A stretch of 64,000 nucleotides of DNA, taken from IMG/VR virus record IMGVR_UViG_2690316311_000019; one strand, given 5' to 3'. Origin of the DNA: a virus (Duplodnaviria; Heunggongvirae; Uroviricota; Caudoviricetes). A program made the position numbers and the translations under genes. Positions 3,101 through 52,646 of the stretch are shown in pieces (within the stretch, counting starts at the first letter, position 1; each line of letters opens with the position of its first letter). Under the pieces are notes generated by a model. The model was not told where the DNA came from and did not search any database. It saw nothing but the letters and a program-made list of their open reading frames with translations.

Positions 3101-3172
3101 GCCAGACGTTCTGTGTCTTGTAAGGGGGACACTCGAGGTGTAGCTCATGACGTTTTGGGTATATTGCTCTAA
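131..3172 (+). CDS. dmt: Bifunctional DNA methyltransferase: N-terminal C5-cytosine MTase domain (interrupted by an intein) fused to C-terminal Dam-like N6-adenine MTase domain
   Basis: C5-MTase motifs (GGTP|[10 protein letters not shown] motif, [23 protein letters not shown]) and Dam motifs ([21 protein letters not shown]); position and architecture match P1 dmt. Confidence 0.88.
362..1384 (+). other. Intein (341 aa) with LAGLIDADG homing endonuclease, inserted between Pro and catalytic Cys of the C5-MTase PC motif
   Basis: Starts CFTAGH (block A), TTNDHPF (block B), two LAGLIDADG motifs ([23 protein letters not shown]), ends VVHN followed by Cys+1; lower GC than flanks. Confidence 0.85.
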
Positions 3173-3179
3173 TAAATTT
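3163..3179 (+). promoter_or_regulatory. C1 repressor operator (ATTGCTCTAATAAATTT) overlapping dmt stop codon
   Basis: Exact match to the P1 C1 operator consensus. Confidence 0.75.
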
Positions 3180-22773: not shown

Positions 22774-23289
22774 ATGGCGTTAACACACCGAGAACTCTGT
22801 CAGATTGCGTACAAGTTCCTTAAGCGCAACGGGTTCAAGGTTTGCTTTCATGACCGCTTTATAGCTGTAACCAGTACCGGAGAACAGCCAGATGCTATGG
22901 GATTCAGAAATTCAGCATCATGCCTGATAGAGGCGAAGTGTTCTCGTGCTGACTTGTTGGCAGATAAAAAAAAGCGTTTCCGTAAAAATCCGTCTCTTGG
23001 AATGGGCGACTGGCGATTCTTTATTAGTGAGCCGGGAATTATTTCAATTGAGGATTTACCACCTGGCTGGGGATTACTTCACGTTGTTAACGGAAGAGTA
23101 CGGAAAGTACATGGGTGGCCCAAGGGTAATTGCTGTTGGGGTAACCCTGAAGATAAACCTTTTATTGGGAATAAGCAGGTTGAATGCGATTACATGTTAT
23201 CTGCATTAAGGCGCATGGAGTTGAGAGGGCACCTTAATGAAATATATGACGGTGTAATTGTTAATAAGAAAGAAGGAAACGCGGCATGA
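22774..23289 (+). CDS. PD-(D/E)xK nuclease-like protein
   Basis: PDAMGF...CLIEAKCSRADL motif; ATG with AAAGGAGAG RBS. Confidence 0.5.
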   Translation: MALTHRELCQIAYKFLKRNGFKVCFHDRFIAVTSTGEQPDAMGFRNSASCLIEAKCSRADLLADKKKRFRKNPSLGMGDWRFFISEPGIISIEDLPPGWGLLHVVNGRVRKVHGWPKGNCCWGNPEDKPFIGNKQVECDYMLSALRRMELRGHLNEIYDGVIVNKKEGNAA

Positions 23290-24143
23290 TCACTATTACC
23301 AAAGAGCGACTGCTGACAATCAAGCAGTGGCGCGAAACATACGGACCTGATAGCAACGTTGTACTGCCAGCAGAAGAAGCGGAAGAACTGGCGCGTATCG
23401 TGCTGGCATCGCTGGAAGCAGAGCCTGTTCTGTATCAGTCCTGCACTCGCCCCACCTGGAATAGCGGTGTTCCGTGGACGGAATGGAAAGAACGTAGTCG
23501 TGAGTGCTACGAAGACGATTTGCGTTTTACAGACACGCCTGACCATGCCGGTTGGATATACAAATGTCGAAAACTATATACCACTCCGCCAGCGCCGATA
23601 GCGTTAGAGGCCATTGAAAACGCAATTGAATACATTCGTAGTATCGCTTTTCACATCGATGAAGACGATTACCACGGCAAACATATTGCGTATTTCATGC
23701 GACAAGCATTGGCCTGGCTGGAAGGGCATTCATGCAGCGACGACAGACTGGGTAAAGCCGACAATCAGCCAGCATCTGGCAACCAGGCTGCCGAATCCAA
23801 TCGCGGTAATGAGTGGACCGGCAATCCTGATATTGATAACGCCATCATCATGCTCGACCGCATAGATACGCTGGAAAATTGCGATGATGACCGTATTGAG
23901 GCTGTTAAGGCTGTTTTGCGTAGACTGGCAGGCAACTCTCCGGTAACTCCGGATGGTTGGATAAGCTGTAGTGAGCGAATGCCACCTCAAGATGATTGGA
24001 TTTTAATTTATTCAAAGCACGGCGAGTATATGGCAGGACAGGTACAAGGGGAATACGTGGAGTTGAGCGACGGCACTTTATCGTGGTTAGGGAACGCCTT
24101 GTTCTGGATGCCGCTACCAGAACCGCCGCAGGAGGCGAAATGA
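23286..24143 (+). CDS. Hypothetical protein
   Basis: 285-aa ORF coupled to neighbours. Confidence 0.55.
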   Translation: MITITKERLLTIKQWRETYGPDSNVVLPAEEAEELARIVLASLEAEPVLYQSCTRPTWNSGVPWTEWKERSRECYEDDLRFTDTPDHAGWIYKCRKLYTTPPAPIALEAIENAIEYIRSIAFHIDEDDYHGKHIAYFMRQALAWLEGHSCSDDRLGKADNQPASGNQAAESNRGNEWTGNPDIDNAIIMLDRIDTLENCDDDRIEAVKAVLRRLAGNSPVTPDGWISCSERMPPQDDWILIYSKHGEYMAGQVQGEYVELSDGTLSWLGNALFWMPLPEPPQEAK

Positions 24144-24400
24144 TGGATGTAAAAGAGAAGGTTTTGCAGGTGATGCGTTCCCGGGCTGCCCTGCAAGATA
24201 AAGCTCTCGGCGGGGAATATCCATTCAGGATGGCAACCTGGAATCTGCGGTTGGCAATGGAGAAGGAATTTCCTGATGAAGAATGGCGTTCGGCAGATTT
24301 GCGCAAAATTCTTATGGAGCTGGCTAAAGACGGAACAGTATCCAAAGATACCCATGCCAGCCGGATTGGTCAGGCGGTATGGAGACTGGAGGTGAGGTAA
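24141..24400 (+). CDS. Small hypothetical protein
   Basis: ATG at 24141 within track ORF. Confidence 0.45.
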
Positions 24401-24681
24401 TGGCTAACCTGCAACTTGCCGTTAAAGGTGAATACTTCGATGCCATGATTCGCGGGGAGAAAACGGAAGAGTATCGCCTGTGTAATGACTACTGGAATAA
24501 GCGCCTCGTTAACTGTAAGTATGACCGCCTGATTATCACAAAGGGATATCCGAAGCGCGAAGACTTCAGTCGCAGAATTGACGTCCCGTATAACGGATAT
24601 GAAATAAAAACAATCACACATCCACACTTCGGTGATAAACCGGTAAAGGTGTTCGCGATAAAAGTGAAGATTAATAGCTAA
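24400..24681 (+). CDS. Small ASCH-like protein
   Basis: RGEKTEEYR motif. Confidence 0.45.
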   Translation: MANLQLAVKGEYFDAMIRGEKTEEYRLCNDYWNKRLVNCKYDRLIITKGYPKREDFSRRIDVPYNGYEIKTITHPHFGDKPVKVFAIKVKINS

Positions 24682-24704
24682 ATTTCAATTAACACGGAGT
24701 AATT

Positions 24705-24998
24705 ATGTGGCGCGGTAATAATCATGGCGGAAGTCAGATGATACTTACCGAATATACGTTCGACCACAAAACCAATAAATCACGTTCAGTATATTTGCTT
24801 CGGCACAATAGCCGCGTAAGAAATACCGTTCTGGAGCAAAATCTGACCGTTGAAATGGATAATTTGGGAAACTTCAAGCCAACAATATCGCTTGATGATT
24901 TTCCGTGTGGTTTAAGCGAAAGAGAAGCAATGCTGAAATTAGCAGAATGGCTACAAAGATTAAGCATTGCTATTGAAGATAACTGGCCTGAACCTTAA
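24705..24998 (+). CDS. Hypothetical protein
   Basis: ORF. Confidence 0.45.
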   Translation: MWRGNNHGGSQMILTEYTFDHKTNKSRSVYLLRHNSRVRNTVLEQNLTVEMDNLGNFKPTISLDDFPCGLSEREAMLKLAEWLQRLSIAIEDNWPEP

Positions 24999-25004
24999 AT
25001 TAAT

Positions 25005-25379
25005 ATGATGACACTAAAACATTTTCTTGACCGCCCATTATGGGCGGCAGCCGCAGGCTATGACTTTAATTATATGGATTGCATGTCTTATACTGCCAAT
25101 GCATACGACCATTCGTTCAGCCTGCTGTTTAATTCTTTAAGAATATTGCCGGAAACAGAAGTTGGAGAGCTTCATTTATGGATATTGGGCTTTATCGCGG
25201 CTGGAGTTGGTATTGCCGTATGGCCTTTTATTTTCTGGCTGGTGGCTGTTGTAGTGTGGTTTAAGTGCAAGACGTACCGGAAAAAGTATTTCTTAGGTGA
25301 TGGAATGACTGATATTGCCAAAATGAACATTGAAAAATGGACTAAGGAATGTGAAAAGAAATGGCGCAAAAAGAAATGA
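25005..25379 (+). CDS. Hypothetical membrane protein
   Basis: Hydrophobic helices. Confidence 0.5.
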   Translation: MMTLKHFLDRPLWAAAAGYDFNYMDCMSYTANAYDHSFSLLFNSLRILPETEVGELHLWILGFIAAGVGIAVWPFIFWLVAVVVWFKCKTYRKKYFLGDGMTDIAKMNIEKWTKECEKKWRKKK

Positions 25380-26050
25380 CTACTCTAACGACAGCATACT
25401 TACAGCAATTGGTATTTTTTGCAGGCGAGGCTACTTGTCATCCTGACGCAAACTATTTATTGGAATTTGAGAGGTTAGCGTCACCCGGTATCGTTCTGGA
25501 ACTGGCCCAACAGGTGCTGGCCTTGAGACAAAAAGAGCAACATGAAAGTAATACGTGTAGATTGAATTTTGAGCAGTGGCTGGAACAGCAACGCGGAAAA
25601 ATCGATGTGGACTGTGGTTGTGTGTCCACTGAAACATTCATGCACTGGCTGCGGGTAGCTTACGAGGCTGGCAACTATCCGGATATTCCGGATATTCCGG
25701 ATAGTTCGGTGCCAGCGCCAGGAAAGGGCGTCACAGGTGAACGTATCCGCATTAAGCCGCATGTTTATCGCGAACTGGTTAACCGTCTCCACGATACAGC
25801 GATCAAGTGTGCAGGCACCCAGCAATTACGAGAAAGAATTAGCCGTGTTTTGGGCGACGTTATTACGCCAGACCATCATAAACAAGCCGAGAAAAGTGAC
25901 CTGGAAAGGTGTCACCTTGAGGCGGCATTAAACATTAAGCCGGGGCATACGCTTGGCATTATCGATGCTCTGTTGGTTCATAAGATGGCCAGGGCTTTAT
26001 TGCCGCTGGTGGCTGAAAAGCATGAGGCGGACCATGCCAACGAAAGCTGA
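25361..26050 (+). CDS. Hypothetical protein
   Basis: 229-aa ORF. Confidence 0.5.
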   Translation: MAQKEMTTLTTAYLQQLVFFAGEATCHPDANYLLEFERLASPGIVLELAQQVLALRQKEQHESNTCRLNFEQWLEQQRGKIDVDCGCVSTETFMHWLRVAYEAGNYPDIPDIPDSSVPAPGKGVTGERIRIKPHVYRELVNRLHDTAIKCAGTQQLRERISRVLGDVITPDHHKQAEKSDLERCHLEAALNIKPGHTLGIIDALLVHKMARALLPLVAEKHEADHANES

Positions 26051-26318
26051 GTTACAGGCGCGCATAGATATTCTTGAAAAAGAGAATGCGAGTCTAAAAG
26101 GAATGCTGGCGCGGGCGGAAAGGGAATTATCAGGCAAATTATTGCCAGAAGAGCTGCCACCAGCAGATATACCTGATCGAGTGTCCTGGTGGATGAAGTA
26201 TTTCCGTGCACCGTGGGAGGCGTTTTGGTGCTACGACCATCGCAGATGGTGTGATGAGCTTGATAGCAGTTTCCCCTATTTTGCGGAAGGGAACTCTTGC
26301 CCTGAATGTAGGAGTTAA
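26034..26318 (+). CDS. Small coiled-coil / Cys-His motif protein, paralog 1
   Basis: C-terminal WEAFWCYDHRRWCDELDSSFPYFAEGNSCPEC. Confidence 0.5.
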   Translation: MPTKAELQARIDILEKENASLKGMLARAERELSGKLLPEELPPADIPDRVSWWMKYFRAPWEAFWCYDHRRWCDELDSSFPYFAEGNSCPECRS

Positions 26319-26623
26319 TGATGACCGGAGAGCTTTATTTTAAAATGGCACGGGAGCGGCGTGTGCATCTGGATCGGATATTTCATCTCCAGAAGAGAGT
26401 AGAAGAACTGGAACGTCGTCTGAACTGTTATCCTGTTGATATGGTGTCTGCAATACCGCCGATTCCAATAGAAATGCAGATCCGCCTATGGATGGAAGAA
26501 TATGGAATGCCGTGGGAGATATTTTTCTGCTTCGACCATAAACAGTGGGTAGATGAGCTGGATAATAGTTTCCCATATTTCACAGAGAACACATGCCCAG
26601 TATGCAGGAAGAACGGAATATGA
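26318..26623 (+). CDS. Small coiled-coil / Cys-His motif protein, paralog 2
   Basis: C-terminal WEIFFCFDHKQWVDELDNSFPYFTENTCPVC. Confidence 0.5.
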   Translation: MMTGELYFKMARERRVHLDRIFHLQKRVEELERRLNCYPVDMVSAIPPIPIEMQIRLWMEEYGMPWEIFFCFDHKQWVDELDNSFPYFTENTCPVCRKNGI

Positions 26624-27144
26624 CAAAATTTGGAAAGCTGGAAGCTCATTTGCTAACTCGTAACTACCGCCATGATATACACCCATATAGACAGTGGATC
26701 GATGAAAGTGAAGGAGTAGTTACATTCCCTCTATACAGGTTTGATGGGATGTTGGCTGGGTATCAGACATATAGACCAGGTGCTCCTAAGCAGCATAGCA
26801 ATCCGAAGATGGCCCGGTATTTCACGCGATCACATGGCAGACAGTTACTTTGGGGAACCTATCTTCCTTTAAAAGATGGCCCAATATGGATAACTGAGTC
26901 TATTTTTAAGAGCGCAGCTGTACACAACGCGGGCGGCAATTCGTGGGCGCTGTTAGGTTCGACTTTCTCCGCAGGATTACGCCGTCAACTTGCGATGCTG
27001 CCGTATGACTTTCGTGTAATAGGTGACAATGATGCGGCTGGTGAATTACTTGTGAAGTCTTTCGGAAAAGGTTTTGTGGCCCCGGATCTTGACGAGCTAC
27101 AACCACATGAAGTGTCTCATTTGATTTTTAGCCATAGCCAATAA
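26620..27144 (+). CDS. Toprim-domain protein
   Basis: Conserved E (ITESIF) and DxD (GDNDAAG) motifs. Confidence 0.55.
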   Translation: MTKFGKLEAHLLTRNYRHDIHPYRQWIDESEGVVTFPLYRFDGMLAGYQTYRPGAPKQHSNPKMARYFTRSHGRQLLWGTYLPLKDGPIWITESIFKSAAVHNAGGNSWALLGSTFSAGLRRQLAMLPYDFRVIGDNDAAGELLVKSFGKGFVAPDLDELQPHEVSHLIFSHSQ

Positions 27145-27204
27145 GCATCTCTCCCCTTTGAGGCCACAATTAGTGGCCTTAAACAATGTGTTTTCTACCT
27201 CGAT

Positions 27205-27420
27205 TTAGCCTCTATTATCGTTTTGCATTTCTCTAATCCGGTTCAGAACTACTTCATGCTGGGCTTGGATAGCGGCTTTTTCGTTTTCAAGTCGGGCAAT
27301 AGACATCTCTAATTCTTTGCTGTACCAGGCGAGTTGGGCCAGGTTCATCCGGTTGTGGTCGAGAGTTGGAGACACTTCGACGCGATCCCTTTCTTCCTGC
27401 TTTAATGAGAAGAGATTCAT
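27205..27420 (-). CDS. Small hypothetical protein
   Basis: 71-aa ORF. Confidence 0.4.
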   Translation of the reverse strand: MNLFSLKQEERDRVEVSPTLDHNRMNLAQLAWYSKELEMSIARLENEKAAIQAQHEVVLNRIREMQNDNRG

Positions 27421-27450
27421 CTCATCCCTTGAGGAAAATTCAGCAACAAT

Positions 27451-27786
27451 TTATTGTTGATGATCCGGTCGCTGCGGCATCCTCGCCAGTATAAATGGCG
27501 GTTCTTTTGAAAACATGAATGTCGGTTCAGACCGTGTTTTTACCCAGCTTGCCTGCTGTCTTTCGGCAAGTTCACAGGCTTCATCATAGTTATTTGCCAA
27601 ACCAAGCACGGATGGACGGTCCCACGCGCCACCATTCAGACAATAAACAACAATTTTCCCGTCATGTTCTGTAACCCCATAGGGATGGTCCCACCAGGCG
27701 TCCAGCTGAGCTTTAGAGCGTCTCTCGTTAGGAGTGCAGTCAAAATTTTTGGGCAATACAGGATCGAGAGGAATGCGATTAGGCAT
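27451..27786 (-). CDS. Hypothetical protein divergent from humD
   Basis: 111-aa ORF. Confidence 0.5.
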   Translation of the reverse strand: MPNRIPLDPVLPKNFDCTPNERRSKAQLDAWWDHPYGVTEHDGKIVVYCLNGGAWDRPSVLGLANNYDEACELAERQQASWVKTRSEPTFMFSKEPPFILARMPQRPDHQQ

Positions 27787-27921
27787 AGCTAATTCCTTAT
27801 TAACTGATTGGCAATGAGGTTACGCTGATCCGTTGGTGATGAATAGTAGCAAAGCGCACAAAATCATCTGCGGTGGTTGATGTACATAACGCGTTTGCAC
27901 CAAAGGTGTCTCTTTAATGTA

Positions 27922-27941
27922 TACTGTATAAATGAACAGTA
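27922..27941 (+). promoter_or_regulatory. LexA (SOS) box upstream of humD
   Basis: TACTGTATAAATGAACAGTA = CTGT-N8-ACAG, about 20 bp before humD start. Confidence 0.8.
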
Positions 27942-27960
27942 TTATTGAGGTGAAAACGCT

Positions 27961-28350
27961 ATGGGCTTCCCTTCTCCTGCGGCGGATTATGTTGAAAGCA
28001 GAATTTCTCTTGATCAGCAACTAATCAGGCATCCATCAGCGACCTACTTCATGCGGGCGGCAGACAGCCATCACCGTGAGGGAATATTGCAGGGTGCTTT
28101 GCTGGTGGTTGATTCCTCGCTTACTCCGGTTGATGGTTCGCTGCTTGTCTGCGCTATGGAGGGTGAATATCGCATAAAGAGATACCGAAAGTATCCGCGC
28201 CAGCACCTGGAGGATTTAAGCACCGGGAAGAAAGAGGCGTTACCAGTAGATGACGATGGTTACACGGGTAGTAATGCTGTTTTTGGTGTGATCACTCATG
28301 TCATCAATGATGCCCGATGTGGGGAGTTTGATGATTGTCCGATCATTTAA
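27961..28350 (+). CDS. humD: UmuD homolog
   Basis: UmuD'-like peptidase S24 fold, 129 aa, matches P1 HumD by recall. Confidence 0.88.
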   Translation: MGFPSPAADYVESRISLDQQLIRHPSATYFMRAADSHHREGILQGALLVVDSSLTPVDGSLLVCAMEGEYRIKRYRKYPRQHLEDLSTGKKEALPVDDDGYTGSNAVFGVITHVINDARCGEFDDCPII

Positions 28351-28416
28351 GCTGCAAAGTGCTGGTGCTTTATGCCTGTGAAGTTTATAATTGTGTACAC
28401 ATAACGAGTACACGAG

Positions 28417-28644
28417 GTGTTTATGCAATCCATTAACTTCCGTACCGCGCGTGGCAACCTTTCTGAAGTGCTTAACAATGTTGAAGCCGGGGAAGAGGTT
28501 GAAATCACCCGCAGAGGCCGTGAGCCAGCAGTAATTGTCAGCAAGGCTACTTTCGAAGCCTACAAAAAAGCGGCGCTGGATGCTGAATTTGCATCCCTGT
28601 TTGACACCCTGGACTCCACCAACAAGGAACTGGTTAACCGATAA
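28417..28644 (+). CDS. phd: Antitoxin Phd
   Basis: Sequence matches P1 Phd by recall; overlaps doc. Confidence 0.9.
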
Positions 28645-29024
28645 TGAGGCATATATCACCGGAAGAACTTATTGCGCTTCATGATGCGAATATAAGCCGC
28701 TACGGCGGCCTGCCGGGAATGTCAGATCCGGGTAGGGCAGAGGCCATTATCGGGAGAGTTCAGGCCAGAGTTGCCTACGAAGAGATCACCGACCTTTTCG
28801 AAGTCTCCGCCACCTACCTGGTGGCTACGGCGAGAGGGCATATATTCAATGATGCCAATAAGCGTACCGCGCTAAACAGTGCGCTGTTATTTCTACGCCG
28901 TAACGGGGTGCAGGTATTTGATTCACCTGAACTGGCAGACCTTACCGTAGGGGCTGCGACTGGCGAGATATCTGTATCTTCTGTCGCCGCCACGTTACGT
29001 AGATTGTATGGTTCTGCGGAGTAG
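28644..29024 (+). CDS. doc: Toxin Doc (Fic-fold kinase)
   Basis: 126 aa with [11 protein letters not shown] motif. Confidence 0.92.
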
Positions 29025-29208
29025 ATTAATGGCACGCAAATACAACAAATTGTCCCGTGAAGCGTTAAAGATGCTTCTTGATGGCGTGAGTCGCCGCGAG
29101 GTAAAGCAATACCTGGTTGGTAAGCAAATTAGAGCCAGGACTGCTATTGCTGTGTTATGCCGTCAGGAAATGGTTGTGCTTAAACAGAGAATGCCGGGCA
29201 GCAGATAA
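29008..29208 (+). CDS. pdcA: Small protein downstream of doc
   Basis: Position as in P1. Confidence 0.5.
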
Positions 29209-29235
29209 AGCCCAATCAGTGATGAAAGGTGTGAT

Positions 29236-30279
29236 GTGAAAGCCGTAATTACTCCCTTTGTACAAAAAGAGCTTGGCGTCGCCACATTCAAAGTGGATCA
29301 GGAAGTCAGAAAGCTGGTGGAGGCTGGCCGTAAATTTATTATGGAGCCGGTGCCGCGTGAGTTAATCGAGCACATGGACGACGGCCTCGTTGTTTCCGAG
29401 CAAACTATGGCAACAAATGAGGCGTTGCAGCCGTTTTTTAACAGCGATGAACTGTTTCGCCGTATTGGTGGAATTGACGCGCTGGTGGCGTGGTTGCGCA
29501 GGAAAGAGGGGCAATGCCAGGCCGCAGATCGTAGCTGGTGTGACAACCATATTGTCCACGCAGAACGAGACAATAGCGCGGTGTTGTTGTGCTGGCATCA
29601 CGATAACCATTACCGGATGCGTGGTTTTAATGAGCTGAAAGAAACGCTGCATAATAATCGCGTTAACTGGATACTGGATGTCGCCCGTCAGGAAATGGGG
29701 CTTTCAGATGGCCATGATTTAAGTATTCAGGAACTGTGCTGGTGGGCTTTCATGCGCAACATGATGCACCTGATGCCGGAAGAAGTTTGCCGCATATCAA
29801 TAAATAAGATGAAGGCTGCTCCGCAGGATAGCGGACCTTTGAAAGAGGCGGATATTCGCCCGTACGACGATCGTGCTACAGCATATGTTCAGATGATGGA
29901 AGAACGCGCCGCGCCGATGCGTGCAAAAGTATGCCCTGTGGATGTTGACTCCGACCCTGGCATGGCGCATTTCAAAATACCAAAACTGCAATCGCTAAAA
30001 TTACCCGAGTACATGGACTTTGTTGCTTCCCGTCCGTGCTGTGGATGTGGAGCTGCGGGAGCTGGCGCTCGCATTACGCCTTATATCGTTCGTCATAGTC
30101 GATTATGCGCGCATGACATTTACGCAATTCCTCTGTGCCAGTCATGCCAGCGTGATATTGAGCGTGACCGCGATAATTGGGAGAAGACGCACGGCAGGCT
30201 GGCGATGCATCAACGATTGTTCTTTGATTACGCGCTTGGAGTCGGCGCTATCACAAGTCACTCGTCGAGCGTTAGATAA
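29236..30279 (+). CDS. pdcB: Protein downstream of doc
   Basis: 347-aa ORF, P1 synteny. Confidence 0.65.
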
Positions 30280-36699: not shown

Positions 36700-36716
36700 T
36701 AATTTATTAGAGCAAT
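36700..36716 (-). promoter_or_regulatory. C1 operator (Op99-type)
   Basis: ATTGCTCTAATAAATTA on minus strand. Confidence 0.7.
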
Positions 36717-52629: not shown

Positions 52630-52646
52630 ATTGCTCTAATTAATTT
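52630..52646 (+). promoter_or_regulatory. C1 operator upstream of ssb
   Basis: ATTGCTCTAATTAATTT. Confidence 0.7.

Follow-up and report, generated by a model that had tools for sequence, protein, structure and literature searches.

Genes of the exo-xis region of phage lambda influence lysogenization and induction (PMC3824215, PMC8614690), and one product of this region, Orf73, is a homologue of TraR (PMC8614690). Proteins of the DksA/TraR/Orf73 group have several hallmarks, i.e. an N-terminal helix with DxxDxA at its tip, a C4 zinc finger and, after it, a C-terminal helix that bears an acidic residue and ExxRK (PMC8614690). In phage P1, the stretch from pmgV to lxr/humD is annotated with the genes upfM, upfN, upfO and hot. 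The locus described here occupies the same place in a P1-like element, the Caudoviricetes virus of IMG/VR record IMGVR_UViG_2690316311_000019, of which a stretch of 64,000 nucleotides (nt), termed the window below, was analysed. In this element two adjacent small genes, A and B, and a third gene, C, which encodes a Toprim protein, stand in place of upfM, upfN, upfO and hot. A and B encode small, probably zinc-binding early accessory proteins of a kind found in temperate phages, and their pairing as paralogues is conserved.

An initial annotation of the window had pointed to two adjacent genes for proteins of 94 and 101 amino acids (aa). Both are present as open reading frames (ORFs) of the + strand, and RefSeq agrees, since the same two genes are entered for plasmid pO111_2 as ECO111_RS29505 and ECO111_RS29510, labelled hypothetical proteins. 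Positions 25900-27300 of the window share 99.9% identity with this Escherichia coli O111:H- plasmid (NC_013370.1) and with a dozen similar plasmids, and the region around A and B aligns to P1-like phages and phage-plasmids. The two proteins are ~38% identical overall and 52% identical over the C-terminal 54 residues (BLASTP, E = 4e-22). The observation of a gene pair is therefore confirmed, far beyond chance. The shared motif that had been described, which runs from W-E-x-F to C-P-x-C, is exact in B; in A the last Cys pair is preceded by one additional residue (F-A-E-G-N-S-C in A, F-T-E-N-T-C in B).

The genes are closely packed. The TAA stop of A and the ATG of B have one base in common, B and gene C overlap by stop and start codon (TGA and ATG, as ATGA), and Shine-Dalgarno sequences precede A (GAGG) and B (AGGAG). 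A and B are translationally coupled, as are B and gene C. Among A-type orthologues with 87-91% amino-acid identity, the ratio of non-synonymous to synonymous substitution rates (dN/dS) is 0.14-0.26, which marks the genes as coding and under constraint rather than as ORFs that arose by chance. Between more distant orthologues, of A as of B, dS has reached saturation, with dN at 0.25-0.46.

Profile comparison assigns both proteins to the family phrog_3797. Residues 1-94 of A align with profile positions 1-94 (E = 6e-58), and residues 18-98 of B with the same positions (E = 1.6e-36). The family has no annotated function or structure, and neither phrog_3797 nor the RefSeq accessions are mentioned in the literature. 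Already on record are the genes, as hypothetical proteins, and their PHROG grouping; the split into A and B subfamilies and the conserved pairing are not part of the PHROG description. Comparison of A and B with Pfam, NCBIfam and PDB sequences gave no match beyond coiled-coil noise.

The family is narrow. When 1.84 billion representative proteins (clusters at 50% identity) were searched exhaustively with the profile, only 46 matches were obtained, nearly all of 65-135 aa. Among the sequences collected, P0079 is a false positive due to its coiled coil, and P0122 and P0123 resemble chimeras made in assembly. A word-index search based on the alignment added no informative domain fusions. Its members belong to temperate phages and phage-plasmids. 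Among the hosts, the Enterobacterales are represented by Escherichia, Salmonella, Shigella, Klebsiella, Citrobacter, Pantoea, Erwinia and Proteus, and Vibrio and Moritella are hosts as well. The family is present in ~146 of 5,426 complete E. coli genomes, and P1-like plasmids of clinical relevance in E. coli, Salmonella and Citrobacter commonly carry it.

A zinc-binding module following a coiled-coil segment had also been suggested by the initial annotation, and comparison of homologues supports it. In an alignment of 49 sequences, Cys, Pro, Cys and Cys are invariant, and a His, a Trp, an Asp and two Phe are nearly so. The proposed ligands, which rank highest in conservation, follow the pattern C-x2-H-x18-20-C-x1-2-C in 47 of the 49 homologues and C-x2-C-x19-C-x-C in the other two. 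Members from P22-like phages likewise have Cys in place of His, and a His-to-Cys swap at a single conserved position fits a metal ligand. The proteins end 2-9 residues past the last Cys. Domain-only members of 63-71 aa exist, and the C-domain is therefore an autonomous unit. Thus the C-domain of A and B is probably zinc-binding, with candidate ligands (Table 1) that would be occupied by the metal in both proteins.

AlphaFold2, run with the family alignment, predicts for full-length A one long helix that spans residues 4-33, then a linker rich in Pro, then a compact C-domain, with a predicted local distance difference test (pLDDT) score of 90.4. The C-domain of A (residues 41-94, acidic and rich in aromatics) is predicted to fold confidently by itself, with a pLDDT of 95.3 for these 54 aa. 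In the DSSP string of the models, C66 ends a short strand, H69 lies in a hairpin turn, and C89 and C92 are at the N-terminus of the last helix; read in this way, the candidate zinc site would be treble-clef-like. A Foldseek comparison of the model with viral models returned family members only, including a 63-aa domain-only protein, and the C-domain is without detectable relative among solved structures.

The leucine-zipper-like N-terminus of the initial annotation is likewise supported. In addition to the modelled helix, the N-terminal helices have a hydrophobic periodicity of 3.5-3.6 residues, and several members give sub-threshold Pfam matches to bZIP or coiled-coil families. As read from the sequence, residues 4-33 of A form an amphipathic heptad helix with L7, L14 and L21 at 'd' positions and Asn18 at an 'a' position. 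An Asn at 'a' is typical of parallel dimeric zippers, by comparison with GCN4. The bZIP matches are to the zipper part of the profile and stay below the gathering thresholds; the score of A is 12 bits, where 22.3 is required, and the best E-value for bZIP_1/bZIP_2 among the 49 members is 0.0055. Dimerization of A and B most likely takes place through the N-terminal helix.

The N-termini themselves differ (A, MPTKAELQARID...; B, MMTGELYFKMARERR...). The N-terminus of B carries a strongly conserved basic motif, YFKMARERR, followed by a heptad helix and then by a C-domain as in A. Residues 1-40 of B have an isoelectric point (pI) of 9.6, and the A-type N-termini are not basic. The net charge of the C-domain is negative in 92% of members, with a mean of -3.8, and the pI is 4.3-4.8 in A and B.

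The pair had initially been read as a tandem duplicate whose divergent N-termini suggest diversification, and this interpretation does not hold. B shares 63% identity with a protein of Klebsiella phage LASTA, and prophage proteins of Pantoea and Erwinia are 60-65% identical to A. Each of the two is closer to proteins from other genera than to its neighbour, and A and B therefore represent two ancient subfamilies. A hidden Markov model scan found two family copies in 25 of 102 fetched loci, and in a neighbour-joining tree all upstream copies fall in the A clade and all downstream copies in the B clade. The A-then-B order occurs in four lineages, i.e. the E. coli pO111_2 group, Citrobacter plasmids, and the metagenomic elements L018 and L090. 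Both copies in the Citrobacter plasmids are ~57% identical to those of the window; there they overlap by 14 nt, and no Toprim gene is found downstream. In L018, a metagenomic phage-plasmid, a minus-strand gene lies between the two copies. Within the A clade, identity to the window copy is 55-75% over the first 40 residues and 41-61% over the C-domain. The N-termini are conserved within a clade and are therefore clade-specific, not diversifying. The tree, this within-clade conservation and the purifying selection seen as dN/dS in A-type genes together rule out a recent duplication in situ and diversifying selection. A role as regulators or inhibitors, also raised by the initial annotation, is plausible.

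A few chimeras, apparently natural, also exist on related contigs. P0004 and P0005 consist of the first ~62 residues of A joined to a C-terminus from B; the two parts meet at the common PWE codons, where A and B have their longest exact nucleotide run in common (CCGTGGGAG, 9 nt). P0032 is the start of A fused to B, and P0057 is the upstream 229-aa protein fused to A. These four are found on one or two contigs each and may be assembly artefacts.

Table 1. Features of the window that bear on genes A and B
Feature	Position	Strand	Remarks
Further matches to the C1 operator consensus (examples)	3163-3179, 36700-36716, 52630-52646		
Promoter-like site overlapping C1 operator	19363..19407	+	operator 19391-19407, 1 mismatch to ATTGCTCTAATAAATTT
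Upstream 229-aa gene	25361..26050	+	P1 pmgV position; RCS47 counterpart named 'putative morphogenetic protein'
Gene A	26034..26318	+	94 aa, A-type phrog_3797 member
ATG preceding protospacer	26193-26195		
Protospacer in gene A	26196-26227		encodes KYFRAPWEAFW
Candidate ligands of A	26229-26231, 26238-26240, 26298-26300, 26307-26309		C66, H69, C89, C92
Gene B	26318..26623	+	101 aa, B-type phrog_3797 member; possibly 100 aa from second ATG at 26321
Candidate ligands of B	26528-26530, 26537-26539, 26594-26596, 26603-26605		C71, H74, C93, C96
Gene C	26620..27144	+	174 aa, stand-alone DnaG-type Toprim protein, ITES and GDNDAAG motifs
Terminator-like hairpin	27157..27183	+	11 pairs; consensus scan only; T-tract weak
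lxr piece, 71-aa ORF	27205-27420	-	phrog_6164 positions 123-193 of 194
lxr piece, 111-aa ORF	27451-27786	-	phrog_6164 positions 1-111
humD	27961-28350		
phd	28417-28644		
doc	28644-29024		

A and B are part of a long run of genes. From the promoter-like site to position 27144 all annotated genes are on the + strand. This site probably starts an operon of ~7.8 kilobases (kb) that holds A and B close to its end, and the hairpin after gene C probably ends it. In terms of P1, the site is the counterpart of OpmgT/Op88, of which OpmgT lies upstream of pmgT in the P1 annotation, and the operon corresponds to the C1-controlled pmgT operon (pmgT-pmgV). Given a C1 operator at the head of the operon, the plasmid prophage probably keeps A and B repressed, and their expression would come early in lytic growth. 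A search of Rfam over 19000-29500 gave no structured RNA match.

The operon (19400-27144, +) carries ~20 small genes typical of lambdoid ea/nin regions, such as those for Ea22-like, EaA, DUF4752, DUF551 and ASCH proteins. The presence of ea/nin-type genes in a P1-like operon shows that early accessory cassettes are exchanged between lambdoid phages and P1-like phage-plasmids. The window as a whole has 15 matches (≤3 mismatches) to the P1 C1 operator consensus, versus a chance expectation of 0.33, which would fit a complete P1-type immunity network in the element.

Elsewhere the family is always placed in early accessory operons of temperate phages. Its place in prophages is between an exonuclease-like gene and xis/int, in what corresponds to the exo-xis region of lambda. 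It is found between ninF and ninG in P22-like Salmonella phages and directly after the replication genes in a Proteus phage, and in more distant elements it follows a DnaB-like, UvrD-like or DNA methylase gene. On one metagenomic contig of 48 kb (L105; 611-853, 2491-4270), the distant family member P0124 (89 aa) comes directly after an orphan DNA cytosine methylase, and an AcrF8-like gene is present ~3 kb away; the surroundings may be an anti-defence neighbourhood.

Of interest also is a record of host immunity. The type I-E CRISPR (clustered regularly interspaced short palindromic repeats) array of E. coli LI60C3 (NZ_CP136900.1; L106 1502-1533, beside cas1e-cas2e) contains a 32-nt spacer that is 100% identical to a segment of gene A. 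The trinucleotide that precedes the protospacer is ATG, an interference-proficient protospacer-adjacent motif of type I-E systems. The perfect match indicates that E. coli acquired immunity against this gene of P1-like elements.

The neighbours of the pair need some comment. The last 17 nt of the upstream gene overlap the start of A, and the C-terminal half of its 229-aa product matches phrog_21459. Gene C aligns with the phage primase profile phrog_849 (435 positions) over positions 145-333 only. As it lacks both a zinc-binding and a helicase-binding domain, a primase role is doubtful. Its relatives of 172-174 aa are separate genes in T5-like phages (as 'DNA primase'), in Kagunavirus and in another phage-plasmid; gene C is an independent module and no fixed partner of A and B. 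The hot gene, a homologue of the DNA polymerase III theta subunit that directly precedes lxr in P1, is not at the P1 position (window 26620-27205), the part of the window that was checked for it. The LexA-regulated lxr seems to be split in two ORFs, which are also annotated separately in pO111_2, and lxr here is probably a disrupted gene.

What A and B do in the cell can be approached from their anatomy and placement. A presumed dimerizing helix, a flexible linker rich in Pro and an acidic zinc mini-domain, together with an early, non-essential and mosaic placement, point to protein-binding accessory factors. The explanation tentatively preferred here is that A and B inhibit or modulate a protein of the host or of a competitor, either as a heterodimer or with related targets. 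The gene, fold-model and zinc-ligand parts of this explanation are well supported, and the activity is what we infer. The N-terminal amphipathic heptad helix would drive dimerization, and a single zinc ion would hold the acidic, aromatic-rich C-domain of ~50 residues together by means of a beta-hairpin knuckle with Cys-x2-His and a Cys-x2-Cys pair that opens the last helix. The genes would be off in the plasmid prophage and switched on early upon induction or infection. As non-essential early accessory factors, they would bind, and probably inhibit or redirect, a protein of the host or of a competing element, with neither DNA binding nor catalysis involved. The A-then-B pairing would provide a heterodimer or serve two related targets. 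Protein binding is likelier than DNA binding because the C-domain is acidic in nearly all members.

Several observations weigh against this explanation. Among PLSDB plasmids ~154 carry an A-type gene and 23 a full-length B-type gene, and most P1-like plasmids have A alone; B-type genes are found alone in some phages (LASTA-like). As A or B may stand alone, a heterodimer cannot be obligatory. When ORFs within 3 kb of the family gene were clustered for 51 non-identical loci, only P1-backbone genes were obtained; no neighbour but the paralogue is consistent across lineages, and genomic context therefore gives no target. PADLOC gave no match for membership in a defence system. In addition, the basic N-terminal motif of B could contact nucleic acid.

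A bolder form of the proposal would make A and B a coiled-coil heterodimer with two undescribed zinc mini-folds, i.e. a new class of phage inhibitor directed against a host defence, replication or repair protein and an obligate two-subunit inhibitor, mirrored in the A-then-B order, where both genes are kept. This seems rather unlikely.

The basic motif leads to the main rival explanation, which is also not very probable. According to this, A and B are nucleic-acid-binding regulators in which the coiled coil serves for dimerization, and DNA or RNA is contacted by the zinc domain, by the basic N-terminus of B, or by both; they would perhaps tune early phage or host gene expression, as proposed for lambda exo-xis proteins. 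The chief reason for considering it is that B-type proteins keep YFKMARERR directly before the heptad helix, and the weak bZIP similarities and the exo-xis-equivalent location of some prophage members are in accord with it. However, the bZIP alignments cover the zipper part only, A-type N-termini lack the basic character, and the conserved C-domain is acidic. No helix-turn-helix (HTH) or known DNA-binding zinc-finger family was detected.

It is very unlikely that A and B are TraR/Orf73-like proteins that bind in the secondary channel of RNA polymerase, with the long helix inserted and the zinc domain as an anchor. The layout of long N-terminal helix and small zinc domain is superficially alike, and some family members sit in the equivalent of the region where lambda carries orf73. 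Yet A and B have no DxxDxA at the helix tip, no C-terminal helix past the zinc site and no ExxRK, and their ligands are C-H-C-C in nearly all members, not C4. There was no Pfam match to zf-dskA_traR among the family, no fold match, and hhalign against TraR gave a probability of 0.6%, with an approximate TraR sequence as query.

A further possibility, also highly improbable, is that A and B are detached zinc domains that act in trans with gene C as a split DnaG-like primase. The CHC2 signature of DnaG is C-x2-H-x17-C-x2-C, which the C-x2-H-x18-19-C-x2-C pattern of A and B resembles, and B is coupled to a Toprim protein that matches just the catalytic core of phage primase profiles. This reading is largely refuted through lack of co-occurrence: the Toprim gene is present without A or B in PhiR41_1, T5-like phages and Kagunavirus, and A or B without the Toprim gene in Citrobacter plasmids, P22-like phages, LASTA-like phages and prophages. 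In addition, zf-CHC2 matches none of the 49 members even at E ≤ 1, and hhalign against the N-terminus of E. coli DnaG (an approximate query) gave a probability of 0.7%. The models do not have the zinc-ribbon beta-sheet fold, and no structural match was found.

That A and B are Phd-type antitoxins, a notion with no source other than the name 'antitoxin PHD' that many NCBI/UniRef records give to A-type proteins (e.g. the P0001 cluster), is refuted at the homology level and almost certainly wrong: hhalign of the family against the genuine Phd of the window gave a probability of 0.5%, there is no PhdYeFM match in Pfam or NCBIfam, and A is followed by B and then by the Toprim gene with no toxin, the real phd-doc pair being 2 kb downstream. 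The name is an annotation error that has been propagated.

The small early accessory genes that temperate phages and phage-plasmids carry form a large reservoir of host-takeover and counter-defence factors, mostly without an assigned fold or function. The family of A and B is narrow, yet frequent on clinically relevant P1-like plasmids. Its zinc mini-domain of ~50 residues is modelled with confidence and has no detectable relative, and its natural paralogue pair is well suited to work on heterodimerization. If a target is found, the family would provide a new inhibitor scaffold; if not, it is one more 'ea/nin-type' gene. The analysis also corrects the widespread 'antitoxin PHD' misannotation.

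A and B can be set beside four described systems. The likeness to the CHC2 domain of DnaG consists of the Cys-x2-His and Cys-x2-Cys pairs at similar spacing and of the DnaG-like Toprim gene that gene B abuts. With treble-clef zinc fingers, the models of A have in common, by DSSP, the first two ligands on a beta-hairpin knuckle and the last two at a helix N-terminus. TraR and Orf73 are, like A and B, small proteins of mobile elements or phage early regions in which a small zinc domain is combined with a long N-terminal helix (PMC8614690). There is no sequence or fold match to lambda Ea8.5 and its prophage homologues, one of which has been solved and has a hybrid homeodomain/zinc-finger fold (PDB 2M7A). 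Ea8.5 is nevertheless a parallel in kind: it has ~90 aa, is a non-essential early accessory protein stabilized by zinc, and is encoded in the exo-xis region (PMC8614690), and some members of the A/B family are found in the equivalent of that same region.

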